A stretch of 64,000 nt of DNA. It comes from Aulosira sp. ZfuVER01 (GTDB lineage Bacteria > Cyanobacteriota > Cyanobacteriia > Cyanobacteriales > Nostocaceae). Both the position numbers and the translations under genes were made by a program. The notes below the pieces were generated by a model. It saw only the letters and a program-made list of their open reading frames with translations, made no database searches and was not told the origin of the DNA. Every line of letters begins with the position of its first letter. The first letter of the stretch is position 1. Location: assembly GCA_034530615.2 (NCBI GenBank), contig JAVRCV020000041.1:128001-192000 (forward strand). The letters run 5' to 3'. Positions 1 to 18,088 of the stretch are shown here, piece after piece.

Positions 1-95
1 AAAGAATAATATGAGAAGACTAAATAAAAAAGATGATTTTTAATAGCTGAAAATCTAAACAATTACCATGTGTTTGTCAAAAGTTATGCTAATAT

Positions 96-236
96 ATAGG
101 TGGGATCGTAAAGAACCTCTCAAATAGGAGGACGTGGCGACACCCTTAGCAGAAGTCTTGAGTTAAGAGTCATGCCAAACCAGGATCTTAGGAAGAGACG
201 ACTATGAGAGGTTTAGGCTAATAAAGCGATACCTGT
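96..236 (+). ncRNA. Candidate rod-like structured RNA, family unknown
   Basis: Nested complementary segments: 96-101/105-108 with 227-236; AACCTCTCA 114-122 with TGAGAGGTT 205-213; TGGCGAC 135-141 with GTC..GCCA 169-177; CTTAGC 145-150 with GTTAAG 162-167. GC content is higher than the flanks. Strand is inferred. Confidence 0.4.
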
Positions 237-283
237 AAACTCATGTTCGTGATGGAGGAACAGTTGGATCAAATTGTATTGCA

Positions 284-325
284 AAACTGAGGGGTTTAGT
301 TGCTATCAACTAGACCCCTTAGTTT
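284..325. terminator. Long stem-loop, probable intrinsic terminator
   Basis: AAACTGAGGGGTTTAGTTG-ctat-CAACTAGACCCCTTAGTTT: 19-bp stem with two G-U pairs on the + strand. Confidence 0.65.
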
Positions 326-359
326 ATGGGAACTCCAAAAAAAATTATCCGAATTATAT

Positions 360-923
360 ATGAAAAATAAAAACGATCGCTATTATCTGATAGTAGATTT
401 GGAAGCTACCTGTTGTGACGAAGGCACAGTTCCCAGGCATGAAATGGAAATCATTGAGATTGGTGCAGTAATGCTGAATCGCACAACATGGGAAATTGAT
501 TCAGAGTTTCAGCGATTTATCCAGCCTGTGAGACATCCGCAATTAACAAAATTTTGTACAAAATTAACTAGTATTACACAGCAAGATGTTGAGAAAGCAC
601 CACAATTTATAGATGCAATTTCTCACTTCCAAGAATGGATGAACTCATTTCCTAATCATATTTTTTGTTCTTGGGGAAACTACGATAAAAATCAATTTAT
701 TCAAGATTGTAAATATCACAATATTCCTTATCCTTTTGGGTCAGAGCATAAAAATATTAAAGAGGAATTCTCAGAATATCTTGGTGTATCCAAAAGATTT
801 GGTATGGCTCAGGCTCTAGAACATTTAGGTTTGGAGTTGCAAGGCACACACCATCGAGGTATTGATGATGCTCGCAATATCGCGGCTATCTATAGATATA
901 TGCAGACCCAAGCACGAAGTTAA
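360..923 (+). CDS. DEDDh 3'-5' exonuclease (ERI-1/KapD-like)
   Basis: Motifs IVDLEATC, EIIEIGAV, SWGNYD, HRGIDDARN. ATG at 360 preferred because the TTG at 300 lies inside the hairpin. Confidence 0.9.
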   Translation: MKNKNDRYYLIVDLEATCCDEGTVPRHEMEIIEIGAVMLNRTTWEIDSEFQRFIQPVRHPQLTKFCTKLTSITQQDVEKAPQFIDAISHFQEWMNSFPNHIFCSWGNYDKNQFIQDCKYHNIPYPFGSEHKNIKEEFSEYLGVSKRFGMAQALEHLGLELQGTHHRGIDDARNIAAIYRYMQTQARS

Positions 924-988
924 GTTATTGGCGAGAGAAAAAAGGTACACTGCATATTTAGCACAGGCGTGAATTAACCTGTTTTGAT

Positions 989-2398
989 ATGCAATTACCT
1001 AATCTTCTCAAAACTTCTGCCATTCTCCAAAAGCTGCATTGGATTGCCGATCCTATTGGATATATGGAAAAAGCAGCGCAACAATATCCGGATATTTTTA
1101 CAACTGTTCTTCTGAGTTCTCAAGACCCTTGGGTATTCGTAAATCATCCCCAAGCTATTCAAGAAATTTTAACAAACGATGCCTCCGGTAGTGGGCGAAG
1201 CGCCGGACGCAAGAAATTTGCTGCTTTAGGTATAAAAAACCAGATTTTGCAACCGTTAATTGGCGACTATTCAGTAGTTATGCTGGATGGCGATCGCCAC
1301 AAGCGGCGACGACAAATGGTAATGCCCTCATTTCATGGCGATCGGATGCGTTCCTATGGTGAGATTATTGGTAACATCACCGAAAAAGTGTTGCTTCAGT
1401 TACCAACAAACCAGCCCTTTACAGCTCGGACGGCGATGCAGGATATTTCCTTACAAGTCATTTTAGAAGCTGTATTTGGCTTGTATGAGGGAGAACGTTG
1501 CCAAAAACTCAAGCATCTGATGGCGTTGATGTCAGATGTATTTCGCTCACCTTTGACTTCTAGCTTCCTATTTTTTCCCTTTCTGCAAAAGGATTTAGGA
1601 GCTTGGAGTCCTTGGGGTAAATTTTTGCGCGATCGCGAGCAAATAGATCAATTGCTTTATGCAGAAATTGCCGAACGACGAGAAAAACCCAATCCCAATA
1701 GTATCGATATCCTCTCCTTACTGATGTCAGCGAGGGATGAAGAAGGCGAGCCGATGTCCGATCGAGAGTTACGGGATGAGTTGATGACTCTGCTATTTGC
1801 TGGACATGAAACTACAGCAACAGCAATGGCTTGGGCATTATATTGGATTCATCACCAGCCGGAAGTCCGCGAAAAATTGCTCCAAGAACTCGATACCTTG
1901 GGAGAAAATCCGGACCCCATGAGTATATTCCGCCTACCTTATCTCACCGCTGTTTGTAATGAAACCTTGCGGATTTACCCAGTTGCAATGTTGACCTTTG
2001 CTAGGGTAGTGCAAGAACCTGTGGAATTACTAGGACATTTGTTAGAGCCTGAGACAACAGTTGTTGGCTGTATGTATCTCGTTCATCAGCGTGAAGATTT
2101 ATATCCAGAACCGAAGCAGTTTAAACCAGAACGCTTTTTAGAACGGCAATTTTCTCCCTACGAATTTATTCCCTTTGGTGGTGGTTCCCGTCGCTGTATT
2201 GGCGAAGCTTTGGCTCAGTTTGAAATGAAGTTAGTAATAGCAAAAATCCTCTCAACTTATCAGCTGGCGCTAGTTGATAATCAACCAGAGCAACCCAAGC
2301 GCCGAGGTGTGACCCTTGCACCTGCCAATGGTGTCAAAATGGTGATTACAGGACAGCGTGCGCGTCAAGAGTCGCAACTGAGTATGGCAAGTACTTGA
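989..2398 (+). CDS. Cytochrome P450, CYP110-like
   Basis: AGHETT I-helix, ETLR, PERF, heme motif FGGGSRRCIG. Confidence 0.95.
   Translation: MQLPNLLKTSAILQKLHWIADPIGYMEKAAQQYPDIFTTVLLSSQDPWVFVNHPQAIQEILTNDASGSGRSAGRKKFAALGIKNQILQPLIGDYSVVMLDGDRHKRRRQMVMPSFHGDRMRSYGEIIGNITEKVLLQLPTNQPFTARTAMQDISLQVILEAVFGLYEGERCQKLKHLMALMSDVFRSPLTSSFLFFPFLQKDLGAWSPWGKFLRDREQIDQLLYAEIAERREKPNPNSIDILSLLMSARDEEGEPMSDRELRDELMTLLFAGHETTATAMAWALYWIHHQPEVREKLLQELDTLGENPDPMSIFRLPYLTAVCNETLRIYPVAMLTFARVVQEPVELLGHLLEPETTVVGCMYLVHQREDLYPEPKQFKPERFLERQFSPYEFIPFGGGSRRCIGEALAQFEMKLVIAKILSTYQLALVDNQPEQPKRRGVTLAPANGVKMVITGQRARQESQLSMAST
1181..1207. mobile_element. 27-bp small dispersed repeat inserted in frame into a HIP1-like site
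   Basis: ACGAT^CGC is split by GCCTCCGGTAGTGGGCGAAGCGCCGGA, adding ASGSGRSAG that is absent from the paralog at 18089. Confidence 0.65.
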
Positions 2399-2497
2399 GG
2401 AGATAGGGGGAAGGAAGCAGGGGTGCAAAGGAACAAGGAGGATAACTCTTTACTATTGCCTTTTAACTGTTGACCCTTGACTTTTGGCTCTGATTAA

Positions 2498-3634
2498 CTA
2501 TCTTGCCATTTGATTTAATTGCGTCCTCAATGTACCTTCTGCGGTATTCACAAAAGTGTCTCTATCTTGAATGATTGCCTGAGGTATGAGCAGAGGAGAA
2601 TTTGTGCTTACCCCAGGCATTTTTTTCACAGCAGTACCGATCGCCATAAATTCAATAATGCCACTGCCCAACTGATAAACGTAAGTTTTGATACCAACTA
2701 CTTGGTCAGCACCGCATTTGCGCGCATCTTCAGCAATGTGGGCGATCGCTTGTTCGCGGGCTTCATAAATTAGGGTAGTTAGTTCTGTAATCTCACCGCG
2801 TACAAAAGATTTGAAGGCTGATGTAATTCCCCCTACCAAGCCAAGAGAATACACTGAAACACCTAATACCAACTGCAACGGCATATAACCCAGATTGATC
2901 AGGTTCCACATTTCTTGATTAGTTAAATCGCTGGCGATCGGACTCTGGCTAAAACCTGGTGCTAGTGCTGGATGATGTGAAGCCGTCCCAATCATTACCA
3001 TCTCTTGCATACCAGCGAACGGCACAATCGAAGTTTTGATTCCTACTACGGCATTGGCTCCCGCAGTCCGGGCTTCAGATTTAATTCGCTTCAGCGCTAA
3101 ATGGCGAGTTTCATTGAATATCTGCGAAAATTCCTTGATTTCTCCCCGCTTTAAACTTTTTAGTGACCCGATTATGCCACCACTTAACCCAGTCGAGTAC
3201 GCAACGTTTCCAAAGACAAACTTTTTAGGTTCAAATCCCGCATCTATTTGGCAGTAAAGTTCCTGTCCATCTGCTGAGGAAGAAAATTTCAATTGCTCAG
3301 ACTTTTCCGCCTCTTGGTGTACGCAGGAGCCGATAGAAAGAAATTCCACATTACCGACTTGTTGTACTAATTCATTTGTAACGCCTGTAATCCCAATACC
3401 ACCGTGCTTCTGTGCTTCAGCTACCATCCTGGCATAAGCTTTTTCCCTTCCTTCATGAATGATGCTGGTAACTTGGGTTACTTCTCCCCCCACAATCGTT
3501 TTCAACCCAGATGCGATTCCCCCAATTAGCCCCAGAGAAAAAACACTATTGCCAATCACCAAATCTCCTGGATGCATACCTTGTTGGTGTAGGCAGAAGA
3601 TTTCATTTCCTGACAGTCCACTAATTGCAGCCAT
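2498..3634 (-). CDS. YbjQ/UPF0145-family (heavy-metal-binding-like) protein with three tandem domains
   Basis: Three repeats of the pattern G(N/V)-(S)V(F/Y)S.G..GGI...K....GE...........R..A and GA..VVGIK. Confidence 0.75.
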   Translation of the reverse strand: MAAISGLSGNEIFCLHQQGMHPGDLVIGNSVFSLGLIGGIASGLKTIVGGEVTQVTSIIHEGREKAYARMVAEAQKHGGIGITGVTNELVQQVGNVEFLSIGSCVHQEAEKSEQLKFSSSADGQELYCQIDAGFEPKKFVFGNVAYSTGLSGGIIGSLKSLKRGEIKEFSQIFNETRHLALKRIKSEARTAGANAVVGIKTSIVPFAGMQEMVMIGTASHHPALAPGFSQSPIASDLTNQEMWNLINLGYMPLQLVLGVSVYSLGLVGGITSAFKSFVRGEITELTTLIYEAREQAIAHIAEDARKCGADQVVGIKTYVYQLGSGIIEFMAIGTAVKKMPGVSTNSPLLIPQAIIQDRDTFVNTAEGTLRTQLNQMAR

Positions 3635-3842
3635 ATCTTAATTTTTAGTTATTTTAAATACAGTATCAATTCTAAGTACAAGATATTAGGTATCAGACCA
3701 AATGGGTATTTGATTTTTGACTACCAAGATAGTGGTACTCGAGTTAATTCGAGCTTAAATTATCTAACCTGTCGTAATATTACCGATTACTAAATTAATT
3801 ATTAGCCGTTATATAGATAATATCAGTATTAAAAAACTAGAT

Positions 3843-5453
3843 ATGATTCAAATCAGCCTAAAAAAGCTTCTTGCGAAAGAAACCGTGGCTGCTATTGTTA
3901 AAAGCACTATCAATGTTTTAGATCGACCTACAGCAATTTTGGATAGTTCTGGCAAATTATTGCTGGGAGAAATTAGTGAAAATTCGACATTTTCATATCC
4001 TGTAGAAATAAGAGAAGAATTGATTGGAGCAGTAAATGGTAGTGAAGATGCTGCTTTGCTAGCAGATCTGCTCGTTCATTTAGCAACTCAAGAGATTGAG
4101 AAAAAAGCTCTGGCATCTGAACTTCTAGATAAATATCGAGAAATTAGCCTTCTTTATAACCTTTCTGAAGAATTATCTGGAAGCCTAGATATTCAACACA
4201 TCGCCAAGTTGGTATTTGAAGAAGCGCAAAAACTGATCAAAGTTACAGATACCTCACTAATATTATTAAATAAAGACACAAATAATCTAGACATAGTCTT
4301 CACGTATGGAACACGTTATAAACCACAAGCCAGCATAAAAGCTGAGGAGGGAATTGTTGGTAGCGTTGTGCATACGGGAAGGGCAGAAATCGTGAATGAT
4401 GTATTGTCCGATCCTAGATATATTGAGAGAGAAACCCAAATCAGTTCTTTAATTTGTGCTCCTTTGAAGATTAGAAATGAGGTAATTGGCGCCATCGAAC
4501 TGAGCAGTAAAATATTTGTTGAATATACCTCAGCAGATCTCAAACTACTTACGACCTTAGCCTCACAAGCTGCTGCTGCAATTGAAAATGCGATTCGGCA
4601 TAAAAATCAGATTAAAGAAGCGATCGCTCGCAGCGAGATGCTAAAAGGTCAGCAAATGCAGAAAGACTTTTTACCAGAGCGATTACCAGAAATTCCCGGT
4701 TGGAATTTAGCAGCAGTTTTTGCTCCAGCTCGTCAAGTTGCAGGTGATTTCTATGACGCTTTTTTACTTCCTAATAACCACTTGGGTTTAGTAATTGCTG
4801 ATGTTTGCGATAAAGGTGTGGGTTCGGCACTTTTTATGGCGCTATTCCGTAGTCTAATTCGGATATTTTCTGGTCAAACATATCTCAGTAAAGATTGTCA
4901 TCCTTATCAAGAGACAACAACTAATTTAACTCTAGATTCCCATCAGCATTTAGCTCATAAGCATGAGATTGGCAATCCTTTAAAAACTGTGGAGATGACT
5001 AACAATTATGTGGCTCACAATCATAGTAATTTAAATATGTTCGCCACCCTATTCTTTGGGGTATTAGACATTAATACAGGACTATTAAATTATGTTAATG
5101 GCGGACACGAACCTCTATTAATTATTGACGTAAAAGGAGTGAAACAACATCTGAAACCGACTGGACCAGCAGTTGGTATTATGCCGAACATGCAATTTAA
5201 AATGGAACAGATTTACCTAGAAGCAGGTGATATTTTATTTGGTTATACAGATGGGGTGACAGATGCCCGCAATCCTCAAGGAAAATTTTTCAGTCAAGAT
5301 AGATTGTTATCTATATTAGATAGAGCAGAACTACAATTTACTAACTTACTAGACAAAATTCAAGGCAATTTAATGGCTCATATTGATGAAGCAGATCAAT
5401 TTGATGACATTACAATGCTAGCAATACACAGAGAATATTTAGCTAATGAATGA
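3843..5453 (+). CDS. GAF + SpoIIE/RsbU-type PP2C phosphatase
   Basis: VAGDFYD, IADVCDKGVGSALFM, YVNGGHEP, YTDGVTDA, DDITML; upstream GAF domain. Confidence 0.92.
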   Translation: MIQISLKKLLAKETVAAIVKSTINVLDRPTAILDSSGKLLLGEISENSTFSYPVEIREELIGAVNGSEDAALLADLLVHLATQEIEKKALASELLDKYREISLLYNLSEELSGSLDIQHIAKLVFEEAQKLIKVTDTSLILLNKDTNNLDIVFTYGTRYKPQASIKAEEGIVGSVVHTGRAEIVNDVLSDPRYIERETQISSLICAPLKIRNEVIGAIELSSKIFVEYTSADLKLLTTLASQAAAAIENAIRHKNQIKEAIARSEMLKGQQMQKDFLPERLPEIPGWNLAAVFAPARQVAGDFYDAFLLPNNHLGLVIADVCDKGVGSALFMALFRSLIRIFSGQTYLSKDCHPYQETTTNLTLDSHQHLAHKHEIGNPLKTVEMTNNYVAHNHSNLNMFATLFFGVLDINTGLLNYVNGGHEPLLIIDVKGVKQHLKPTGPAVGIMPNMQFKMEQIYLEAGDILFGYTDGVTDARNPQGKFFSQDRLLSILDRAELQFTNLLDKIQGNLMAHIDEADQFDDITMLAIHREYLANE

Positions 5454-6588
5454 TTTGGGCTTGCAAAAAGCATTTCCCTTACTATTATTAATTGCTGCTG
5501 GCTATTGCCTGCAAAACAAGTTTCAAGAAGCGGCTGCTGTTGGGGCTTTAAAAACATTTATTGTAAATGCTGCATTGCCAGGAATGATTTTTTTATCAAT
5601 TCTAGATATTGATACCAAAATTTCTTTATTATATTTAGCATTATTAGCATTATTAATTAATATTTATTTCTTAGCAGTCAGCTTTGGATTAGCGCGTCTG
5701 ATTATCCCTAATAAAGAGCAACGCAAAGCTCGTTCGCTAATTTTGATGTTTCCATCTTTAGGTACTGGATTAACAACTTACCCATTTGTCGAAGAATTTT
5801 TAGGAAAAACAAGCCTAGCAGAAGTAGCAGTAGCAGATATTGGTAACAAAATGTTTGTGCTGATTGGACTTTATGCTTTAGCAATGTATTGGTTTTATCA
5901 AAGAACGGCTGCATCTACAAAACAACCAACTCAATGGCACAAAGTGATGTTGGGTTTATTAAACGAACCGATGAACATGGCGATTCTTTTAGGACTGTTC
6001 TTAGTAATATTTAATCTCAACACAGCTGTTCCTGCAATAGCTTTAGATGCGGTAAAAAAATTAGCAGCTTGTAGTACACCGCTAATTCTATTTTTTGTGG
6101 GTGTTTCCCTGAATATTCAGGGGTTGGAATTAAAAACAATCGGTACTGTTTTGTTGCTGCGATCGTCATTGGGATTTTGGTTTAGTGCAGCAGCGATCGC
6201 ATTTATTCACCCCAGTTCGGGAATTAATTTCTTACTCATCGCCATCTTACCTCAAGCTGGTTTAAGCGTTTGGCCTTTAATTTATGCTTCTCAAATCAAC
6301 ACCCAAGAAATCCAGCAAATGCAAGGCGAAAATCTCCGTCGTCCAACAACTTTTGATACAGAATTTGCCTTGGGGCTATTAGCGATCTCGATTCCCTTTT
6401 CAATCTGCATTATTTTATTTGTTTTATGTCAAGGTAGTTTCTTTACTACTTCACAACATTTATTTTTGCTTGGGAGTTTAGTTTTGCTAGCTGCAGGATT
6501 ATGGCAATTTGGTTGGCAATTTATGAAATCAAAGTTATCAATTTTTAAACATCAAAATCTATTAAAAGCTGACACCAGTGATAGCTAA
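5446..6588 (+). CDS. AEC-family (auxin efflux carrier/malate permease-like) transporter
   Basis: About 10 hydrophobic segments; NAALPGMIF, YPFVEEFLG, PLILFFVG patterns; overlaps the upstream stop. Confidence 0.7.
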   Translation: MNDLGLQKAFPLLLLIAAGYCLQNKFQEAAAVGALKTFIVNAALPGMIFLSILDIDTKISLLYLALLALLINIYFLAVSFGLARLIIPNKEQRKARSLILMFPSLGTGLTTYPFVEEFLGKTSLAEVAVADIGNKMFVLIGLYALAMYWFYQRTAASTKQPTQWHKVMLGLLNEPMNMAILLGLFLVIFNLNTAVPAIALDAVKKLAACSTPLILFFVGVSLNIQGLELKTIGTVLLLRSSLGFWFSAAAIAFIHPSSGINFLLIAILPQAGLSVWPLIYASQINTQEIQQMQGENLRRPTTFDTEFALGLLAISIPFSICIILFVLCQGSFFTTSQHLFLLGSLVLLAAGLWQFGWQFMKSKLSIFKHQNLLKADTSDS

Positions 6589-6622
6589 TTTTTAATTTTT
6601 AATTAAAAAGGGTAGTAAGATT

Positions 6623-9600
6623 ATGTCTAATTGGTGCAACCTAAAGTTCTGGCGGCATAAATATAAATACCCGTGGCAGTCTCGCCGTGATGTTTCCTTA
6701 TTATTAATCGCTGGCATGATTTTAGTAGTAGGAACAACTGCTGTAGCCAGCTATTGGTTTGTCAGGAACCTGATATTAAAAGGGTTACAGGAAAATGCCC
6801 TGTTGCGCGTACAGCAGGCGGGATATGAAATCGATCAGTGGTTGGCGACGCTGTTAGCACAAGTGGAAGTTGTAGCTAATAATCAAACAGTACGCAGTTT
6901 AAACTGGTCGCAGGCAGAACCTTACTTGCAACTGGAAATTAATCATTTGCCAGATATAAATTCATTTTTGCTGGCTCTACCAAATGGCTCTTACTACACT
7001 ACTAAAGCTGGTTTTGTTAGGGATCGAAATATTAGCGATCGCCGTCATTTTCAGCAAGCAATCACCGGAAATACCCTCGTAGACGATCCTGTAGTTTCTC
7101 GCTCTACAGGTATCCGCCATGTCAACATTGCCGTACCGATTTGGTCAGTGTCGCCTTTACGGCACATTCCACTGGATGCCGAAGCCGCTCAAGTTCGTGC
7201 CCGTAGTTTACAAGCATTAGGTTTTGCTATTACTGCCGATCAAAAGCCCAAACCTATTGGCGAACTCTCCGGTCAAGTAGCTGTAGACCGAATTTCGCAA
7301 GTAATTGCTTCTACCCACTTCAGCCAAGGAAGTTATGCCTTTGCCCTCGATTCCCAAGGATTTCCGATCGCGCATCAGGATACAACTATCGACCAGAAAA
7401 AAAGTTTCTTTAATGCACCAGATCCAGTGTTAGCCAAAATTGCCCAGAACATGGTTAATGGCAAGCACGGAACTCAATTAGTGCGGTTTCAGGGGCAGGA
7501 AAGCTCGGTTTACGTAGCCTATGCTCCTCTCAAGTATGCCAAGTGGTCAGTGGCATTAGTGATTCCCCGTGAGAAGCTAGAAGAAAATCTTTATGCTCTT
7601 AATCTGCTAGCTGTAGTGGTAGGAGGTTTGTTGGTATTAGCTACCATTACAGCTATACGCCAAATCAAAGCTTTTGAGCGCACCCGTGCCCAAGCCGAGC
7701 AGGAGGGGCTGGTGAATCGCATCACAGCTCGCATTCGGGAGTCTTTGGATCTACAAACCACCTTGCAAACTACGGTGAAAGAAGTAGCCAATCTCCTGGA
7801 TCTCAACCGCGTCATGTTCGGTTGGTATCACCCAGAAAATCGCAGTCTAGAAGTCACTTGCGAGCATCGGTTGCCAAATCTGGATGCGATCGCTGGAATT
7901 TTGAACTTGGATGACTTTGGCGACTTGGCCGAACGCTTGGGGCAAAAGCAGATTGTACGTTGCAACGAAGTAAAGGTGAATACTGCCAGTCAGCAAGCGC
8001 AAATCGGTAGTTGTATAGCTTTACCTGTCTTAATTCCTGGCGATCGAGATCCTGGTTATCTGATATGCTCTCGCTCCCATGCTTGGGTGTGGCAAGAATG
8101 GGAAGTTGAACTGTTGGAAGTTGTAGCCGAGCGAGTAGCGATCGCCATCAAACAAGCACAACTTTATACCCAAACCCAAGAACAGTTTGCGATTGTCAGC
8201 AATCAAGCCGAGCAATTAACAGCAACCACCACCCAATTACAAGATACTTTGGGGTACGTCAGCGCCATTATCAAGAGTTTGGGCGATGCTTTGCTAGTCG
8301 TAGATCCTGATGGCAAGATTGCTCAATATAACCCAGCGCTTACCTGCTTTTTAGAGCTAGCAGACGAGAATTTAGTCGGTATGGATGCACAAACGCTATT
8401 TAATGGTGCGATCGCTAAACTCGTAGCCCTAACTAGCAGTAACTGTCAGGAAATGTTCGCTGCTGAGGTAGAACTGGCTCAAGGACGTGTTGGTAAAGCT
8501 GTAGCTACAGCTATGCTGAAAGACTCGCAACATAATGGTGATATTAGCTACATTGGCTCCGTAATTTTAATCCGGGATATTACTTTTGAAAAAGAAGTAG
8601 ATCGCATGAAGACGGACTTTATTTCTACGGTCTCCCATGAATTAAGAACTCCCCTCACCTCTGTGATTGGTTTTGCCAAATTAATTAAGAAAAAACTCGA
8701 CGAAACTTTATTTCCCTTATTATCTACCGATGATAAAAAGATACAGCGTTCTATGCGGCAGGTGTCAGAAAATGTCAGCATCATCATTTCCGAAGGTGAG
8801 CGACTAAAAGCTCTGATTAACGACATCCTCGACTTGGCAAAAATTGAGGCGGGGAAGGTGCAGTGGAATATGCAATCTCTCTGTGTCCCAAAAATGCTAG
8901 AGCAAGCATTTGCTGCTACTACTGCTCTATTTGAACAAAAAAGTCTACAGCTAATCCCAGAGATAGAACCAGAATTACCAGAAATCATTGGCGATCGCGA
9001 ACGTCTGATTCAAGTCATCATTAATCTCATCTCTAATGCAGTCAAATTTACAACCACGGGTTCGATTATTTGTCAAGCCAAAGTAATAGATAAAGAAATA
9101 ATTATTAGTATTATTGATAGCGGTATTGGTATTGCTCAAGAAGACCAAAATAAAGTTTTTGAAAAATTTAAACAAGTAGGTGATACCCTCACTGATAAAC
9201 CTCAAGGGACTGGTTTAGGGCTACCGATTTCTAAAGAAATTATCGAACATCACAATGGGCGTATTTGGGTAGAAAGCGAACTGGGTAAAGGTAGTAATTT
9301 TTCTTTCAGCTTACCTATTCCTCAGGAACCAATCAAGGGTGTCAAAACCATCGATATCGAAAGTTTAATTCAGCAATTAAATTTCCCTAATCCTCTTCCT
9401 CAAAACGTTGCTGAAAATGAGCAGAAAACTATTCTAATCGTAGATGATGAAGCTGCAATGCGAGAATTGGCTAAACAATATCTCAGTTCGGAAGGCTATA
9501 AAATTATCGAAGCAAAAGATGGTTTAGAGGCTATCGAATTAGTCAAACAAGAGCTTCCAGATTTGATATTACTTGATGTGATGATGCCTAGAATGAACGG

Positions 9601-10036
9601 TTTTGACACAGCCGCAGTCCTCAAAAACGATCCGCATACCATGCATATTCCCATTATTATTTTGTCAGTTGTAGAAGACGAAAATCGTGGTTATGCACTT
9701 GGAGTAGATCGATTTTTAAACAAGCCGATTAATGCTGAAGAATTGCTGAAAGAAGTAGCTAATTTGATGTCTTTTGGACGCTCGCAAAAACGTGTGCTAA
9801 TCGTAGATGAAAATGTTCCTACTAGCAAAACTTTAGCTGAGGCATTACGAGCAAAAGGTTTCGGCATTGTAGAAGCGTTCAACTATCAAGATTCTATTGA
9901 AAAAGCTATGTCTGACAGACCCGATTTAATTATTGTAGATTCCTTAGTTTCTTCTCGTCATAGTCTGGTCAGAACCTTACGATTTGAGAAAGGTTTAGAA
10001 AATTTATTTTTTATACTTTTAGAGGAAAAAAAATAA
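6623..10036 (+). CDS. Membrane hybrid sensor histidine kinase (dCache-GAF-PAS-HisKA-HATPase-REC-degenerate REC)
   Basis: Two TM helices flank a Cache-like region; SHELRTPL, NLISNAVKF, DSGIGI, GTGLGL; LDVMMP receiver; second short receiver at the C-terminus. Confidence 0.92.
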   Translation: MSNWCNLKFWRHKYKYPWQSRRDVSLLLIAGMILVVGTTAVASYWFVRNLILKGLQENALLRVQQAGYEIDQWLATLLAQVEVVANNQTVRSLNWSQAEPYLQLEINHLPDINSFLLALPNGSYYTTKAGFVRDRNISDRRHFQQAITGNTLVDDPVVSRSTGIRHVNIAVPIWSVSPLRHIPLDAEAAQVRARSLQALGFAITADQKPKPIGELSGQVAVDRISQVIASTHFSQGSYAFALDSQGFPIAHQDTTIDQKKSFFNAPDPVLAKIAQNMVNGKHGTQLVRFQGQESSVYVAYAPLKYAKWSVALVIPREKLEENLYALNLLAVVVGGLLVLATITAIRQIKAFERTRAQAEQEGLVNRITARIRESLDLQTTLQTTVKEVANLLDLNRVMFGWYHPENRSLEVTCEHRLPNLDAIAGILNLDDFGDLAERLGQKQIVRCNEVKVNTASQQAQIGSCIALPVLIPGDRDPGYLICSRSHAWVWQEWEVELLEVVAERVAIAIKQAQLYTQTQEQFAIVSNQAEQLTATTTQLQDTLGYVSAIIKSLGDALLVVDPDGKIAQYNPALTCFLELADENLVGMDAQTLFNGAIAKLVALTSSNCQEMFAAEVELAQGRVGKAVATAMLKDSQHNGDISYIGSVILIRDITFEKEVDRMKTDFISTVSHELRTPLTSVIGFAKLIKKKLDETLFPLLSTDDKKIQRSMRQVSENVSIIISEGERLKALINDILDLAKIEAGKVQWNMQSLCVPKMLEQAFAATTALFEQKSLQLIPEIEPELPEIIGDRERLIQVIINLISNAVKFTTTGSIICQAKVIDKEIIISIIDSGIGIAQEDQNKVFEKFKQVGDTLTDKPQGTGLGLPISKEIIEHHNGRIWVESELGKGSNFSFSLPIPQEPIKGVKTIDIESLIQQLNFPNPLPQNVAENEQKTILIVDDEAAMRELAKQYLSSEGYKIIEAKDGLEAIELVKQELPDLILLDVMMPRMNGFDTAAVLKNDPHTMHIPIIILSVVEDENRGYALGVDRFLNKPINAEELLKEVANLMSFGRSQKRVLIVDENVPTSKTLAEALRAKGFGIVEAFNYQDSIEKAMSDRPDLIIVDSLVSSRHSLVRTLRFEKGLENLFFILLEEKK

Positions 10037-10849
10037 ATGAAGACTTTGAATCTGAAAAAGTTACTAGCTCAACCAGAAGTATTGTCAATCATCCAAGAGA
10101 TGTTAAATATTACTGGTAATAATATTGGTATCTATGATAGTCATGAAAAACTTTTATTAGGGAAAGAGCAAGAAAAATTTTCCATATCAGTACCCATTCA
10201 AATAGAAGGTTTAGTAATTGGTTGGATTCGAGGAGATTCTACAGCTACGGCAATTGCATCGCTGCTAAACTATTTAACAAATCGGGAATTAGAACGGAAA
10301 AAGCTCGCTCAAGAAGCACTGGATAAATATCAAGAGATTAATCTCATCTATAGTATTTCGGATAAACTAACTGCTAATTTAAAATTACAAGAAGTTACCC
10401 AAATTCTCATTGAAGAAATCAAAAAGAGAATTGCTGCGACTAGTGGAGCAATTATGCTTCTCGATCCCGATAAGCGACAATTAGAAATTATTTCTGCATT
10501 CGGTCAGCAATATCACCACAAATCAACTGTAATACCAATCACTGGAATTATTGGTCATGTACTCCTTGAAGGTAGAGGCGAAATTGTCAATGATGTCCTT
10601 GCCGATCCGAGATTTGTGCGTGCAACTGACCCGCTTAACTCGCTCATTTGTGTGCCACTTTTGAGTAAAGATAAAGCGATTGGCGTTATTACTATTAGCA
10701 GTGAAGAATCAACTTTTTACAAAGCAGCAGATCTGAAAATTATTAAGGCTTTAGCTACTCAAGTAACATCAGCGATCGCTAATGCTATTCTCCATGAAAA
10801 GATGCTGCGAGAACAGCAGGTTATTAGCAAAATGGAAAGATATTTTTAA
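10037..10849 (+). CDS. GAF-domain protein without an output domain (possibly truncated)
   Basis: Paralogous to the N-terminal half of 3843..5453 (LDKY.EI.L.Y, EIVNDVL.DPR, SLIC.PL); ends at MERYF. Confidence 0.8.
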   Translation: MKTLNLKKLLAQPEVLSIIQEMLNITGNNIGIYDSHEKLLLGKEQEKFSISVPIQIEGLVIGWIRGDSTATAIASLLNYLTNRELERKKLAQEALDKYQEINLIYSISDKLTANLKLQEVTQILIEEIKKRIAATSGAIMLLDPDKRQLEIISAFGQQYHHKSTVIPITGIIGHVLLEGRGEIVNDVLADPRFVRATDPLNSLICVPLLSKDKAIGVITISSEESTFYKAADLKIIKALATQVTSAIANAILHEKMLREQQVISKMERYF

Positions 10850-10869
10850 ATTTAAATAGGGTTTTGTAG

Positions 10870-11643
10870 ATGAATATTTTTCTTGAACTCCCATTACGCA
10901 CCAAAAAAAATAGACAAGCTGGATTAACAGTTTTAATTGATAATGGTGTACCCACTGGATATTTTGCTGATGTAATTAATAGTCATAGAGACTTTATTGA
11001 TATTGTCAAATTTGGCTGGTGTAGTTCCTTAATTACAAAAGATATTTATCAAAAAATTGAATGTCTGCAATTAAATGGGGTGCAATTTTATTTTGGCGGA
11101 ACTTTCTTTGAAAAATGTCTCATCCAGGGCAAGCTGAATGATTTTTATAATTATCACAAGGCTTTTGGCTGCACTCACATGGAGATTTCTAACGGTACTA
11201 TCAACCTCAGCAACCGCGAAAAAGCTAAATATGTTGCGGAGTTCTCCCTAGAGTTCACAATCTTGAGTGAAGTTGGTTACAAGGATTCAGAAAAATCCCA
11301 AGAATTATCTGCAAATAGTTGGGTGGAATATATTTGGCAAGACTTAGAAGCAGGTGCATCCAAAGTAATTACCGAAGCCAGAGAAAGTGGTAGATCTGGT
11401 ATATGCCAAAAAAATGGAGAATTGCGTTATGCAATTATCTCTGAAATTCTCAACTCGGGAATTAATCCAGACAACTTGATTTTTGAAGCGCCAACGAAGG
11501 ATTTACAAACATACTTTATTACCGAAGTGGGAGCAAATGTCAACTTAGCAAATATCAGCTTTGATGGGGTTCTAAGTTTAGAAAGTCTGAGATTAGGATT
11601 GAGATCGGATACTTTACTTTTGTTTGAAGGAACTTTAGTATGA
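10870..11643 (+). CDS. comA: Phosphosulfolactate synthase family (ComA/HSA32-like)
   Basis: GLTVLIDNG, IDIVKFGW, GGTFFE, EISNGTI, LSEVGYKD, VITEARESG, LIFEAP, NVNLANI, LESLRLGLRSDT. Confidence 0.88.
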   Translation: MNIFLELPLRTKKNRQAGLTVLIDNGVPTGYFADVINSHRDFIDIVKFGWCSSLITKDIYQKIECLQLNGVQFYFGGTFFEKCLIQGKLNDFYNYHKAFGCTHMEISNGTINLSNREKAKYVAEFSLEFTILSEVGYKDSEKSQELSANSWVEYIWQDLEAGASKVITEARESGRSGICQKNGELRYAIISEILNSGINPDNLIFEAPTKDLQTYFITEVGANVNLANISFDGVLSLESLRLGLRSDTLLLFEGTLV

Positions 11644-12041
11644 GAAGTTCAGAAAATGTCTTTCATTTAGCAATTCCCTGTAAAGAACTTGAGGAAACAG
11701 TAGATTTTTATGTAAATAAACTTAATTGTCAGTTGGCTCGTAGATATGCAGATCGCGCCACTTTTAATTTTTTTGGCGATCAGTTAGTTTGTCATCTCGA
11801 TCCCGAAAAGATAGATTTAAATCCCCAAATTTATCCTCGACATTTTGGTATTACTTTTAAACATAAAAGCGATTTTGACTATCTGCTGAGTTTGGTTGAG
11901 CAGCGGCAAATTAAACTCTTCCAAAAACTTATGCTAAGGTTTGCCGGAAAACCAGAAGAACACATGACATTTTTCTTAAAAGACCCTTCTAATAATTTAT
12001 TGGAATTTAAATATTATTTAAATTCAGAGATGATGTATTGA
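11640..12041 (+). CDS. VOC/glyoxalase-family protein
   Basis: FHLAIP, FFGDQLVCH, PRHFG, FLKDPSNNLLEFK; ATGA overlap with comA. Confidence 0.88.
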   Translation: MRSSENVFHLAIPCKELEETVDFYVNKLNCQLARRYADRATFNFFGDQLVCHLDPEKIDLNPQIYPRHFGITFKHKSDFDYLLSLVEQRQIKLFQKLMLRFAGKPEEHMTFFLKDPSNNLLEFKYYLNSEMMY

Positions 12042-12216
12042 CAAAATAAGAGTTTAGATGCCATAGTATTAGCCTAATTTTGTTTTTTGAGAGATAAAAA
12101 TGTCATCAAAATTCTTAGATCTCTTAGCAAGATTGGCAGATTTATCTGTTTTATGCGTTGCCAATAACCGATAAAATAATTGAAATAATATATTTACAAA
12201 AAAATTAGAGGTAATT

Positions 12217-12609
12217 ATGAGTAAAAAAATTTTAATTGTAGATGATGAAGTACATATCCGGTTGTTGTTAGAGCAAACCCTAGAAGAATTAGAAGATGTA
12301 GGAGTAGAGTTGCTAGTTGCTGATAATGGTGAGAGCGGCTTAGAAAAGATTAAATCTGAACAACCGAACCTCGTATTTTTAGATGTAATGATGCCCAAAC
12401 TCAGTGGATTTGATGTGTGTAATGAAGTGAAAAATGTCCTGGGTATGAAAGATATTTACATCATTATGCTGACGGCTAAAGGACAGGAGTTTGACCAACA
12501 AAAAGGTAAAGAAGTAGGTGCAGATCTATACTTAACTAAGCCTTTTGACCCCGATGAAGTGTTAGAAAAGTCGCAAGAAGTTTTAGGGCTTGTAGGGACT
12601 TCCAATTAA
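12217..12609 (+). CDS. Single-domain response regulator
   Basis: ILIVDDE, FLDVMMP, MLTAKG, YLTKPF. Confidence 0.95.
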   Translation: MSKKILIVDDEVHIRLLLEQTLEELEDVGVELLVADNGESGLEKIKSEQPNLVFLDVMMPKLSGFDVCNEVKNVLGMKDIYIIMLTAKGQEFDQQKGKEVGADLYLTKPFDPDEVLEKSQEVLGLVGTSN

Positions 12610-12779
12610 AAAAATACCCCATCGCACAGAAGAGGGACAAAGAAGACAAGAAAGACAAATTCTTGTCGATCATACAAATTGTATAATTTATTTTTTGAGT
12701 ACTCGTATACGAACTATAGCAAAAGTAAGATAGCTGCGATCAAGTCTATTTTCTTTCTTTTGCCTTTTACCTTCGGGTT

Positions 12780-12833
12780 CGCCACTTGACGGCAGTTGTT
12801 ACAACGGGGGGAACCCGTCCACCGCAGTGGCTC
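12780..12833 (+). repeat. Small dispersed repeat (GCCAC...GTGGC family)
   Basis: CGCCACTTG...ACAACGGGGGGAACCCGTCCACCGCAGTGGCTC, similar to copies at 47418, 57447 and 63861. Confidence 0.7.
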
Positions 12834-12892
12834 ACCTTTTAACTTTTAACTTATTCGGTGATACGATTTGGATCGTATTACTTATTAGCAGT

Positions 12893-13231
12893 ATGACACT
12901 GGCACTTGGCATGATTGAAGTTTATGGCGTTCCCGCAGCAGTCGAAGCCGGAGATGCTATGTGTAAAGCTGCCCGCATCACTCTTGTAGGGTATGAAAAT
13001 ACTGATTTAGGACGGATTACAGTATTAATTCGCGGGGAAGTGGGAGAGGTAAATGTTGCTGTAATCTCAGGATTAGGGGCGGTAGGGCGAGTTAATGGTG
13101 GCGAGGTGCTTTCGCATCATATTATTCCGCGTCCCCATGAAAATTTAGAATATGTGTTACCGATTCATCGCAGTGCCAATGTTGAGCAGTTCAGTGCCGA
13201 TATCCGGTTTCCTCCGCCCCTATCAGCGTAA
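12893..13231 (+). CDS. ccmK: BMC-H shell protein, CcmK family (satellite paralog, possibly CcmK6-type)
   Basis: [32 protein letters not shown]...[15 protein letters not shown] at 12893 matches the usual CcmK N-terminus. Subclass is uncertain. Confidence 0.85.
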
Positions 13232-13240
13232 AAAACTCCT

Positions 13241-14410
13241 ATGAAATCCTTAACATCTCGTATGCAGGCGGTACAGTCGCCAATCATTCCTGTTGTTGGG
13301 GAACTGATTAAAAACTCTCCCGGAACCATTTCTTTAGGACAAGGTGTGGTTTCTTACAATCCTCCACCCCAAGCAACAGAGTTTTTAGCTAAATTCTTGG
13401 CTGAACCGACAAATAATTTATATAAAGCAGTTGAAGGAATTCCGCCATTAGTAGCAGCATTAGCCGCTAAGTTACAAGCTTTCAATGGCATAGAAATTAA
13501 CAAAGAAAACTTTATAGTTGTCACGGCTGGGAGCAACATGGGTTTTATCAACGCCATTCTGGCAATCACTAGCCCAGGTGACGAGATTATTTTGAATAAG
13601 CCTTACTATTTCAACCACGAAATGGCCATTACAATGGCAGGTTGTCATCCGGTATTAGTAGAGACGGATGAAAATTACCAACTGCGTCTAGAAGCGATCA
13701 CCCAAGCAATTACGCCCAAAACACGTGCTATAGTCACAGTTTCCCCCAATAATCCCACAGGGGTGGTGTATTCAGAAACAGCATTGCGGGAAGTTAACCA
13801 ATTATGTTGCGATCGCGGGATTTATCATATTAGCGATGAAGCCTATGAATACTTTACCTATAACGGAGTAAAACACATTTCTCCTGGTGCTTTTGCTGGT
13901 AGTAGCGACTACACCATTTCTCTTTACAGCCTTTCTAAAGCTTATGGTTTTGCTAGTTGGCGTATTGGTTATATGGTAATTCCCCAACACCTGCTGGTTC
14001 CTGTCAAAAAAGTCCAAGATACGATTTTGATTTGTGCCCCAGTAATTTCTCAGTATGCAGCGTTGGGCGCATTACAAGCAAAAGACGAGTATTTAAAAGA
14101 AAATATTGGTGCGATTGCCCAAGTACGACAATTGGTACTGAAATCTCTCAATCGCTTACAAGGCTTATGTACTATTACTCCTGCTGATGGTGCTTTCTAC
14201 TTTTTCTTGAGAGTTCATACTCAAATTAATGCTTTCGAGTTAGTGAAAAGATTAATCCAAGAACATCAAGTAGCCGTTATTCCCGGTACAACCTTTGGCA
14301 TGGAAGACGGATGTTATCTGCGTGTAGCCTACGGTGCGCTGCAACAAGAGACAGCAAAAGAAGGTATAGAAAGATTAGTCCAAGGCTTGCAAACGATATT
14401 GGTTAATTAG
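13241..14410 (+). CDS. PLP-dependent aminotransferase class I/II
   Basis: SPNNPTG, SDEAY, SLSKAYGFASWRIG. Confidence 0.93.
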   Translation: MKSLTSRMQAVQSPIIPVVGELIKNSPGTISLGQGVVSYNPPPQATEFLAKFLAEPTNNLYKAVEGIPPLVAALAAKLQAFNGIEINKENFIVVTAGSNMGFINAILAITSPGDEIILNKPYYFNHEMAITMAGCHPVLVETDENYQLRLEAITQAITPKTRAIVTVSPNNPTGVVYSETALREVNQLCCDRGIYHISDEAYEYFTYNGVKHISPGAFAGSSDYTISLYSLSKAYGFASWRIGYMVIPQHLLVPVKKVQDTILICAPVISQYAALGALQAKDEYLKENIGAIAQVRQLVLKSLNRLQGLCTITPADGAFYFFLRVHTQINAFELVKRLIQEHQVAVIPGTTFGMEDGCYLRVAYGALQQETAKEGIERLVQGLQTILVN

Positions 14411-14434
14411 GTAAGATAATTCGTAATTGAAGAT

Positions 14435-14872
14435 ATGAAAATTTTTAATCAGCTAATTGAAATCGCAACTAATGAAGGAATTAATATTCATAACATTACC
14501 CCGCAAATTCAAGATTTAATTAATTCCACAGCGATTCAAAATGGACAAGCTTTAGTGTTTTCTCGACACACGACAACTGCTTTGGCTATCAATGAAAATG
14601 AAGAACGCTTATTAGAAGATGTAAAAGTATTTTTACGAAAATTAGCACCGGAATCGGAGCGATACTTACATAACGATCTGCATTTAAGGGTTGTCCCAGA
14701 AGATGAACCGATGAATGCTCACTCTCACTTAATGGCTATGATGCTAACCACTAGCGAAGTTATTCCGATTGTCGATGGCAAATTAGCCTTGGGAACTTGG
14801 CAATCAGTATTGTTTTTTGAGTTAGATGGCCCGCGTAACCGTACAGTGTTTGTACAAATTTCTGGCGAGTAA
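14435..14872 (+). CDS. yjbQ: YjbQ/UPF0047 family protein
   Basis: HTTTALAINENE, NAHSHL, LALGTWQ, ELDGPRNR. Confidence 0.9.
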   Translation: MKIFNQLIEIATNEGINIHNITPQIQDLINSTAIQNGQALVFSRHTTTALAINENEERLLEDVKVFLRKLAPESERYLHNDLHLRVVPEDEPMNAHSHLMAMMLTTSEVIPIVDGKLALGTWQSVLFFELDGPRNRTVFVQISGE

Positions 14873-14972
14873 AGGCTGTAGCGATCGCTTCTGCTGTGTC
14901 GTATTGACTGGTATGCTGTCACGAGAAATGCGATCGCCAGAGTAATTGATTCAGCTAGGATCGCACTGAGAA

Positions 14973-15650
14973 CTAATCCAAACTAAATTCCACAAACTCT
15001 ATTGGCCCAAACAACTGTTTTTTATCGATTGCCGATAAAACTTTATTATTAGTACGGTCAGAATTTAAAGCACGGACAACAAACTGCGCCACATCTGCAC
15101 GATGGATACTACCAACAACCCGCGCATCTTCAGTTAAAACTCCATTGCCAGTTGCAGGTTCCGACTTTAACCCACCAGGACGGATAATTGTATAAATGAG
15201 TCCACTAGTAATCAGATGTTGTTCGGCCTTATCTTTTTCAACCAAAACTTCTTTCAAGGCTTCCAAAGCTTGCGGGGACAAAGCACCAACACTATTGCCA
15301 GTGCCAATGGAAGATACAAGAATAAACTTTTGTACCCCAGCTTTGACTGCTGCATCAATCAGATTTTTATTACCAAGATAATCAGGACGCTCAGTATTAT
15401 TCGGTAAACCACCTATAGTACTGATAACGGTATCGACGGGTTCACCTGTCAGTATTGCACGTTCTACATCATCTACGTTCAAAGCATCTCCAAAAACCAC
15501 CTGAATACCTAATGCTTCTAGTTCAGGAGCAGTAGTTTCCTTTCTCAGCAGTGCTTTAACTTTTAGCTGTTGTGCTGTTAGGTATTTAGCAATTTCCCGC
15601 CCAACACCACGGCTTGCTCCTGCCAGAAAAATGTAAGATGTCTTTGTCAT
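14973..15650 (-). CDS. Atypical SDR / NAD(P)-binding oxidoreductase
   Basis: AGASRGVG Rossmann motif, KDKAEQHL, YTIIRPGGL, IHRADVA. Confidence 0.88.
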   Translation of the reverse strand: MTKTSYIFLAGASRGVGREIAKYLTAQQLKVKALLRKETTAPELEALGIQVVFGDALNVDDVERAILTGEPVDTVISTIGGLPNNTERPDYLGNKNLIDAAVKAGVQKFILVSSIGTGNSVGALSPQALEALKEVLVEKDKAEQHLITSGLIYTIIRPGGLKSEPATGNGVLTEDARVVGSIHRADVAQFVVRALNSDRTNNKVLSAIDKKQLFGPIEFVEFSLD

Positions 15651-16194
15651 AATTGACTGTTATTTCTCTTGAACGACTGAATTGCTGACATTCCAAGGAT
15701 TTTACCAAAGGATGAACAGTATTTAGTAAATACATTAATTGCTGGGGATGGTTGCGAAATACGTACTAGCACTGTTAAAAAATATCTTGTTTACAGGTTG
15801 TGGTACTGAATATTTCCTTACTGATTCAATTTACTACTTAATATAGAAGCCCTTTGATATATATGTAATTGGGTAGAGATTTGAGTATCACATTCATAAA
15901 GAAAAGAACAACTATTTCAGGACTAGATGCAGGTGTAATGTCTGCTAAAAAAGCAATTGTTGCTCTAAGCATAAATACTGTTTCTGTCCCTCAATTTGTC
16001 CTATATTGAAGATACAGCCTACCCATGAACTGCTGATAACAAGGGACACCTTATCTATAGTAATACACTGATTATGTCAAGAAAATATGACATTCAAGTA
16101 TTAATCCTTAAATTGTTAAGTAATTATTATTACATTTTTATATCAGATTCTCTTATAATTAAAAAATTTATCATTAAGTTTTACTTATTATTTT

Positions 16195-17099: not shown

Positions 17100-18014
17100 A
17101 TGAATACACAAGCAAAAGCGTTACTTTCACCGCTATTTGGGCTAATACGCATTTATCATAATTTGCAGTGGGAACTAGTTCTCATGTGGCAATTTATCTG
17201 GCGTGATTACTCAAGCGCCTTGCTACCTGGATTACTATTTTTAATAGCTGCTTGGAAAGTTAACTTATTGCCTTTAAATGAATTACCGTTGCAAATAGGC
17301 CGCGGCATCATTTATTTTTGGCTTTATATTTTGTCATTTTGTATTCCAAACCAAATTGTTGGCATAGAAGAAGATAAGCTGAATAAACCTAATCGTCCCC
17401 TTGTGACAGGACTTGTTTCTGTTCATGGAGCTTTGGTAAGGTGGGTTGTAAGCATGATTTTCTTTTCGTGTGTAGGATGGTGGTTTGGGGTTTTAGAGTG
17501 GGCACTACTCTGGCAAATCTGCATTATTTTGAATAACTTTGGCAGATGGGACAAGCACTGGATTACCAAAAACATAATCATGGGAGTAGGCACAGTTGCT
17601 CAACTTGCAGCGGCTTATCAACTAGTAGCACCTTTAACTCCTATTGCATGGCGTTGGATTTTAGTGTTGGCTGGTGTGTGGCTAACTATCTCTGCTGTTC
17701 AGGATTTGCGAGATATTGAAGGCGATCGCGCTATTGGTAGAAACACATTGCCAATTGCTTTTGGAGAAACTGCAAGCCGAGTAATACTGAGTTTAGGCTT
17801 TGCATTGTTGCCATTCGCGACTCATTTATTATTAATGATGCCTGTAGGAATAACAGCAAAAGTATTACTTTGCGATATGGCTCTTGCAGTTTTGAGTTTG
17901 ATAGTTGCAGTACGGATTATCTTTTATCGTTCTCCACAAGCAGATCATCGCACCTATATGCTATTCACATACTGGTTTTGTCTAATCCTAGCTAGTGCGA
18001 TCGTTATCCTGTAA
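17100..18014 (+). CDS. UbiA-superfamily membrane protein, probable UbiA-type terpene cyclase
   Basis: Multi-TM; NQIVGIEEDKLNKPNRPL (NxxxGxxxD) and QDLRDIEGD (QDxxDxxxD). Confidence 0.8.
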   Translation: MNTQAKALLSPLFGLIRIYHNLQWELVLMWQFIWRDYSSALLPGLLFLIAAWKVNLLPLNELPLQIGRGIIYFWLYILSFCIPNQIVGIEEDKLNKPNRPLVTGLVSVHGALVRWVVSMIFFSCVGWWFGVLEWALLWQICIILNNFGRWDKHWITKNIIMGVGTVAQLAAAYQLVAPLTPIAWRWILVLAGVWLTISAVQDLRDIEGDRAIGRNTLPIAFGETASRVILSLGFALLPFATHLLLMMPVGITAKVLLCDMALAVLSLIVAVRIIFYRSPQADHRTYMLFTYWFCLILASAIVIL

Positions 18015-18088
18015 ATTTATGCCATTAACACTAGTAATACTTCAAAAATCAAAGAAAAACATTGAGCACAATTTTTGGAGAAACATAA

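Follow-up and report, generated by a model that had tools for sequence, protein, structure and literature searches.

A ligase-free comA–VOC gene pair in a lineage-restricted signalling island of Aulosira sp. ZfuVER01

The window analysed here, a stretch of 64,000 nucleotides from the cyanobacterium Aulosira sp. ZfuVER01 (contig JAVRCV020000041.1, positions 128,001 to 192,000), carries a block of genes in which a phosphosulfolactate synthase (ComA) and a vicinal oxygen chelate (VOC) protein are encoded among sensor, phosphatase and carrier genes. By comparison with related genomes and metagenomes, the block is read as an accessory island: a maintained, lineage-restricted mosaic of two separable units. 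The reading we prefer, with a probability of roughly 0.6, is that the comA–VOC pair entered an older signalling cluster between its GAF and receiver genes, that it is likely carried on the transcript of that cluster, and that it likely makes a small free sulfonate from phosphoenolpyruvate (PEP) and sulfite. Each unit occurs alone elsewhere, so the island was likely patched together recently and probably does not form the dedicated make-export-sense circuit that an initial annotation of the sequence had proposed. Part of that proposal held, in that all seven genes are under selection; outside three congeners, however, comA–VOC was never found with these signalling genes.

The island and its maintenance

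The initial annotation described seven co-oriented genes, the first six overlapping or less than 35 bp apart. In a check of the open reading frames (ORFs) of the window, all seven were recovered on the plus strand at the positions listed below, with distances of −8, 34, 0, 20 and −4 bp between genes 1 to 6, followed by 175 bp to the receiver gene. Domain searches agreed with the proposed gene identities, the AEC carrier being the weakest call. What had been missed was that the block forms an accessory island that includes a divergent YbjQ gene.

2412..12891, no strand: accessory island, edges approximate, with a P450 gene on one side and a BMC-domain gene on the other (congener comparison)
2498..3634, minus: YbjQ-repeat protein, divergently oriented, within the island (PF01906)
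3843..5453, plus: N-terminal domain, GAF and SpoIIE (PP2C) phosphatase (domain search)
5446..6588, plus: divergent AEC-family carrier (called via a 93% identical homologue)
6623..10036, plus: hybrid kinase, dCache-GAF-PAS-HisKA-HATPase-REC-REC (domain search)
10037..10849, plus: N-terminal domain and GAF protein (domain search)
10870..11643, plus: ComA, phosphosulfolactate synthase family (PF02679)
11640..12041, plus: VOC protein of the comA-associated subfamily (PDB 3RRI type; Glyoxalase, PF00903), overlapping comA by 4 bp
12038..12067, plus: Sigma70-like promoter match, TTGACA-18-CATAGT with TG before the −10, across the VOC stop codon (consensus match only)
12217..12609, plus: single-domain receiver (REC) protein (domain search)

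Positions 1–16000 of the window were searched against the DNA of five congeners for occupancy of the island site. The island (approximately 10.5 kb, from the YbjQ gene to the receiver gene) was absent from the site in all five, G007 among them, and the flanking genes lay 81–530 bp apart. The full seven-gene set, in the same order, was found in three congeners only, namely the genome under study, G003 and G006. Tight spacing was retained in the latter two (GAF–comA gap of 18 bp), while the YbjQ gene was a remnant in G006 and was not seen at the corresponding place in G003.

Ratios of non-synonymous to synonymous substitution (dN/dS) were calculated pairwise across these three genomes by a simple counting method. 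Values were 0.08–0.09 for comA, 0.08–0.12 for the VOC gene, 0.15–0.17 for the AEC gene, 0.10–0.11 for the kinase, 0.14–0.19 for the SpoIIE phosphatase, 0.14–0.28 for the GAF gene and 0.04–0.11 for the receiver. All seven genes are thus under purifying selection and none looks decayed. The comA–VOC pair had a lower GC content than the signalling genes around it (34.4% vs 39.1%) and no HIP1 sites in 1172 bp compared to 8 in 7007 bp, although the region is too short for either measure to decide its origin.

No terminator-like site was found in our scan on the plus strand between the island genes, the GAF–comA gap being 20 bp; the promoter and terminator scan as a whole gave 37 matches against 29.9 ± 5.9 in shuffled sequence, which is no excess. 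Both hexamers of the promoter match across the VOC stop codon were also present in G003 and G006. This match is a possible separate promoter, which could keep the receiver expressed independently.

The comA–VOC cassette

ComA matched PF02679 over its full length (residues 10–247) with 264.7 bits against a cut-off of 25.2 (E 9e-79), and its best PDB match was a solved phosphosulfolactate synthase (E 4.8e-88). Residue K138 aligns with Lys137 of 1QWG, which we take to be the catalytic lysine of the M. jannaschii enzyme. K138 and the acidic residues E105, E134 and E206 were retained in 40/40 homologues, so that the enzyme looks intact, as the initial annotation had supposed. The lack of comB in the window, which that annotation had noted, also stood: none was found, and the two ComB-family genes of the genome lie on other contigs (C39 and C35), unlinked to comA. 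Likewise no comC was present, and the ComC family (PF02615) was not found anywhere in the genome. The island is not a coenzyme M cluster. A sat gene and a cysH-like gene were located on other contigs, no clear adenosine 5′-phosphosulfate (APS) kinase was found in the genome (best PF01583 match, E 2.6e-4), and the domain search showed neither an acyl-CoA ligase nor an acyl carrier protein (ACP) in the island.

The predicted structure of the VOC protein had a confidence (pLDDT) of 95 and overlaid on 3RRI with a template modelling (TM) score of 0.96; the next structural matches were FosA, FosB, FosX and uncharacterised VOC proteins at about 20% identity. In an alignment of 40 VOC sequences, H9, H68 and E122 were invariant in 40/40, and these are assigned from the family as the probable His/His/Glu metal ligands. 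Also invariant were H52, H108, four Arg residues, K124 and three Tyr residues, while Y36, D38, R39, C51 and E106 differed in both of the distant VOC proteins compared. Together, these residues suggest that the protein binds a metal and has a pocket for an anion.

The same alignment was used to scan metagenomes, and the best 80 of at least 583 confirmed stretches were analysed. The YPRH and DPxNN motifs served as VOC scan patterns, and their invariance among the 80 loci is therefore by construction. A comA gene lay directly upstream of the VOC gene in 42 of the 80 loci, in 41 of the 72 whose upstream sequence spanned at least 300 nt, and in 32 of 50 clusters at 85% identity; the proportion was 41/54 once 18 loci with an archaeal-type polD/cdc6 context were set aside. 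Among the 42 comA–VOC loci, the partners were ComB (12), an ANL ligase (14), a histidine phosphatase (4) and an ATP-grasp ligase (3), and ATP-grasp genes flanked 25 of the 80 VOC genes. That ligases recur as partners implies that the product is a carboxylate, and the loci with a VOC and an ATP-grasp gene but no comA suggest a downstream role for the VOC protein, its substrate being a sulfonate that cells can also obtain by uptake.

The conserved neighbourhood that the initial annotation had expected was largely not found. Homologues of the kinase, receiver, GAF, SpoIIE and AEC proteins were detected at none of the 80 VOC loci (tblastn, E ≤ 1e-5), and the cassette also stands apart from them in genomes G020 and G049 and at two Bacillaceae loci (L022 and L023). 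Its neighbours in these places were of other kinds. In G020, comA–VOC opens a polyketide synthase–nonribosomal peptide synthetase (PKS-NRPS) cluster whose first (starter) adenylation (A) domain is closest to oxalate-CoA ligases; its product is a candidate cyanobacterial sulfoacyl peptide. The DNA of metagenome locus L026 is apparently that of the G020 locus. Both Bacillaceae loci read comB-comA-VOC, and one is divergent from cysH-sat-cysC.

Within cyanobacteria, comA was present in 5 of 61 relatives and in 4 of 401 genomes of the phylum, the genome under study being counted in both. Given this rarity (4/401), a de novo route to a C2 or C3 sulfonate in a heterocyst-type cyanobacterium would be unusual. 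The five relatives with comA were the same five that carry a close VOC homologue (E ≤ 1.5e-70); a sixth, weaker VOC match was in G030, which lacks comA. A distant comA without an adjacent VOC gene was seen in G432, and in G271 comA lies between an APS kinase gene and tauD with no VOC gene beside it. A search of 301 genomes of the phylum centred on G444 gave two VOC matches, the second of which (G609) had no adjacent comA. Scanning a genome collection for the VOC alone gave 3 loci, which were left out of the counts, and a plasmid search returned distant VOC proteins only (best 42.5% identity). In the best comA tree, the window gene groups with metagenome locus L025 (support 93/82), and a single clade of six cyanobacterial ComA proteins was not rejected (p-AU 0.24); as the tree is ambiguous, no donor is claimed. 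The VOC tree was poorly resolved.

On these comparisons, comA–VOC is judged to be a widespread cassette of a known kind, and its ligase-free setting to be new. The lasting interest lies in the cassette, not in the circuit: in many lineages ComA is accompanied by a conserved VOC subfamily, and the ligase-free two-gene version is a minimal system from which to learn the role of the VOC protein and whether PEP and sulfite yield sulfoacetate.

Several further settings of the cassette were observed. At L011 and L170 (G020:C263), the PKS-NRPS cluster headed by comA–VOC also contains two ABC exporters and a GNAT gene. The single metagenome contig L083 (positions 3-4436) reads comA-VOC-comB, then on the same strand luxR after a 69 bp gap, luxI and a second luxR; this locus is a better candidate than the window for a sulfonated signal, namely a sulfoacyl-homoserine lactone. 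At L055, L063 and L068, comB-comA-VOC occurs with ATP-grasp genes, in L055 and L063 inside polysaccharide loci, and L063 also encodes an MBL-rhodanese protein, a possible sulfite source. The archaeal-type VOC clade comprises L027, L029, L031–L033, L035, L038, L041–L043, L045, L050, L051, L056, L058, L059, L069 and L084. An ATP-grasp gene follows the VOC gene in 17 of these 18, and glycosyltransferase and flippase genes mostly do so too; a sulfoacylated glycan is a possible product.

The signalling genes and the carrier

The second unit of the island is the set of kinase, GAF and receiver genes, here termed the chassis. The dCache_1 domain, at about residues 45–322 of the kinase, scored 63.8 bits (cut-off 45). 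A search with the N-terminal half of the kinase gave matches in 12 of 331 genomes of the order. The full kinase architecture with GAF neighbours was found in six other genomes (G045, G1065, G1039, G1087, G974 and G1117), the receiver lying within the stretch read in four of them. ComA was found in none of the five of these tested (G045, G1065, G1039, G1087 and G1117). The linkage of comA to the kinase, GAF and receiver genes was thus not upheld beyond the three congeners, the set occurring, once with the AEC gene, in genomes that lack comA. This single case, G045, has AEC (53% identity), kinase (60%), GAF (52%) and receiver (83%) genes in the same order as the island, with 141 bp at the position occupied here by comA–VOC. 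The slot before the receiver is filled differently in other genomes: in G1065 by a GAF-cyclase gene, a CRP gene and others, and in G1117 by a GAF-cyclase gene 10 bp from the receiver. Contigs C73 and C21 of the genome under study also carry paralogous GAF-kinase-receiver sets without comA. Cyanobacterial clusters of a hybrid kinase, single receiver and GAF output (G045, G1117, g237 genomes, C73 and C21) therefore resemble the island in gene order, at 48–83% identity, but their outputs vary (cyclase, kinase or PP2C) and none has comA–VOC.

The dCache domain shared 48–54% identity with four orthologues from comA-less genomes, compared to 45–54% for the GAF and PAS domains, and a stretch of the pocket region, YYT-SDR-PVVSRSTG, was common to the window kinase, G045 and G1065. 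These comparisons gave no sign of a sensor swap, and the kinase probably responds to an ancestral ligand and not to the product of the cassette.

The AEC call is the weakest of the seven, as the window protein had no Pfam match and scored 39.7 bits against TIGR00946 (cut-off 246); the 93% identical homologue passes PF03547. The closest named homologues were Calothrix and Nostoc records. Three of 251 genomes in the family carried the gene (the genome under study, G003 and G006), as did 10 of 301 in the order. Neighbourhoods were read for 8 of the 9 others, and neither comA nor the VOC gene was found in any of the eight. A gene for a heme-oxygenase-like diiron enzyme lay directly upstream of the AEC gene in 4 of the 8 (L126:8083-10113 in G045, L127, L128 and L129; PF14518, Pfam-checked for two), with weak PDB matches to 4-aminobenzoate synthase/CADD. 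At five of the six other chassis loci, AEC was not seen in the stretch read, and in three g237 genomes the diiron-enzyme/AEC pair lies away from the kinase.

Two features of the GAF proteins were also observed. The 270-aa GAF protein stops at ERYF, where its homologues run on into a class III adenylate/guanylate cyclase domain. This short form is retained in G045, G1065 and G1039, in the latter two beside a full GAF-cyclase (window 10037-10849; L157:7858-10130; L161:1098-2522), and it is possibly a regulatory partner. The N-terminal 266 aa of the SpoIIE phosphatase share 39% identity with the GAF protein encoded on its own. An N-terminal domain of about 100 aa (window 3843-4150 and 10037-10350), without a Pfam family, is common to GAF-PP2C, GAF-cyclase and GAF-kinase proteins, which recur beside the same receiver type, and may be a docking domain. 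An atlas search with this shared domain brought up clusters without a name and, at 0.86 only, a lead to PocR.

Proposed pathway and rival explanations

The closest known system is misNOPQ of the Streptomyces misaugamycin cluster, which encodes an ACP and an acyl-CoA ligase, along with a phosphosulfolactate synthase plus a glyoxalase, and is flanked by transposases. It is predicted to provide misaugamycin B with its 2-sulfoacetyl group, and this congener was favoured when sulfite was fed (PMC9136965). The island resembles it in having adjacent phosphosulfolactate synthase and glyoxalase-family genes (here overlapping by 4 bp), in mobility and in lacking a phosphatase within the cassette, but differs in having signalling genes around it and no ACP, acyl-CoA ligase or NRPS. 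In B. subtilis, yitCD has been tied to spore sulfolactate in the sections available of PMC517825, a precedent for a free product; this yitCD / yitBA-yisZ system likewise combines a ComA-type synthase with a free sulfonate and no coenzyme M pathway. Unlike it, the island has no adjacent phosphatase or sulfate-activation genes and has a VOC gene added. The first step, sulfite onto PEP, is shared with archaeal ComABCDE and bacterial XcbA-E, as far as covered in the accessible text of PMC9457059, whereas the genome has no ComC family and the island no XcbC/D/E-type genes. A literature search found no description of this cluster or of the VOC reaction, with thin coverage of subscription journals and judged by titles and abstract openings.

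On the preferred reading, the cassette would have been inserted in the variable slot before the receiver and would be read from the upstream promoter of the island; the two units are seen apart elsewhere, and their join was found only in the three congeners. ComA would very likely convert PEP and sulfite to (R)-phosphosulfolactate, as its family does. The following step is postulated more tentatively, at somewhat less than even odds: the phosphate would be lost through one of the two remote ComB-family enzymes or within the VOC step, and the VOC protein would shorten the C3 sulfonate to sulfoacetate, by analogy with the prediction for MisP/MisQ. A reaction of sulfolactate + O2 to sulfoacetate + CO2 + H2O balances and would fit the misaugamycin product; alternatively, sulfolactate would be the end product. 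A sulfonate product, as the initial annotation supposed, is in either case likely. It would remain free, as the island has no ligase, and may be exported by the AEC carrier, though this step is doubtful. From domain content, the kinase would act by way of the receiver on outputs that bear GAF domains, in this case the PP2C phosphatase.

Several observations weigh against this insertion reading. The cassette has been held in place, at 18–20 bp spacing, over a synonymous divergence (dS) of about 0.4–0.5, and the AEC gene has been conserved though its usual diiron-enzyme partner was not found in the genome under study, G003 or G006; both fit a functional tie inside the island. The absence of signalling genes from all 80 metagenome loci is weaker than it looks, since many contigs are short and only 15 of the 42 comA loci have at least 2 kb on both sides, and the cassette does have signalling genes of other kinds nearby (luxR-luxI at L083; in G049, a CheA gene 2.6 kb upstream). 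At least 18 of the 80 VOC loci, with an archaeal-type context, have no adjacent comA. No characterised close relative of the VOC protein was found: the sole close structure (3RRI) is uncharacterised and the reaction of the subfamily is not known. The VOC protein was likened to MisQ by gene-family description only, and the step is putative in both. Finally, the direction, insertion here or loss elsewhere, is unrooted.

A rival to this reading is a make-export-sense loop, in which ComA and the VOC protein make a sulfonate, AEC exports it and the dCache kinase senses it, the synthase occupying a swappable slot in the chassis. The tight packing of six genes in three genomes and selection on every gene are consistent with such a loop, as are the retention of AEC without its diiron partner and the presence of a small-molecule enzyme alongside the AEC-kinase-GAF-REC set in each of the two lineages in which the set was observed. 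We nevertheless consider it unlikely, because the dCache domain has diverged no more than the internal domains from comA-less orthologues, the other chassis loci mostly lack AEC in the stretch read and comA where tested, the diiron-enzyme/AEC pair is separate from the kinase in three g237 genomes, and the synthase is linked to the sensor in three congeners only and not across lineages. Its fuller form, a chassis with an exchangeable synthase (the diiron enzyme in G045, ComA–VOC here) through which a sulfonate, for example sulfoacetate, is made, exported and sensed, with the VOC protein performing an undescribed C–C cleavage of (phospho)sulfolactate, is distinctly improbable; it would amount to cell-to-cell signalling by a sulfonate in cyanobacteria. 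Were the kinase to sense the product, the signal would belong to a new class, but the comparative evidence makes sensing the less likely case.

Other roles for the cassette were weighed against the insertion reading. Two tandem adenylation-thiolation-thioesterase (A-T-TE) genes with oxalate-CoA-ligase-like A domains lie on contig C30 (14586-17249 and 17729-20371), and the cassette might feed them in trans, a sulfo-acid being loaded to give a sulfonated product, as with malonyl and sulfoacetyl in misaugamycin A and B. Each of the 15 adenylating ORFs tested from cassette loci had its best genome match in these genes, which are 63–64% identical to the A-T module after comA–VOC in G020. This is an unlikely role, however, as the gene type occurs in 10 of 14 congeners, eight of them without comA and two with it, and was not found at threshold in the comA-positive G049; the link was rejected as not specific, the type being common in the genus and mostly without comA. 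The sulfite-stress module also put forward by the initial annotation, in which surplus sulfite would be captured on PEP by ComA and the product disposed of via AEC, is very unlikely. Sulfite is consumed by ComA, as described in the accessible text of PMC9457059, and in G049 the comA–VOC pair is preceded, at a distance of about 0.9 kb, by a gene for a TauE exporter; elsewhere, however, comA stands beside sulfite suppliers (sat/cysC/cysH in L022, APS kinase and TauD in G271, MBL-rhodanese in L063) and acyl-activating ligases, which points to biosynthesis and disfavours a stress role. There appears to be an extremely small chance that ComA has no enzymatic activity and acts as an HSA32-like stress protein, the VOC protein being a detoxifying glyoxalase unrelated to it. 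A Gly-to-Cys change in the KFGWGT motif (GWC for GWG) and a score of 225 against the archaeal ComA model, below its cut-off of 280, would agree with this, but the Cys form is found in 11/40 homologues, the Lys and flanking Glu residues are kept in all of them, the best PDB match is to a phosphosulfolactate synthase, and the VOC gene co-occurs with comA across lineages.

Two further groups of genes were observed outside the island. On C30, the A-T-TE genes are situated approximately 10 kb from a large glycosyltransferase cluster. In the window, at 17100-19483, a UbiA-family gene is followed by a P450 gene paralogous to the P450 gene at 989-2398, and the two are possibly a terpenoid pair.

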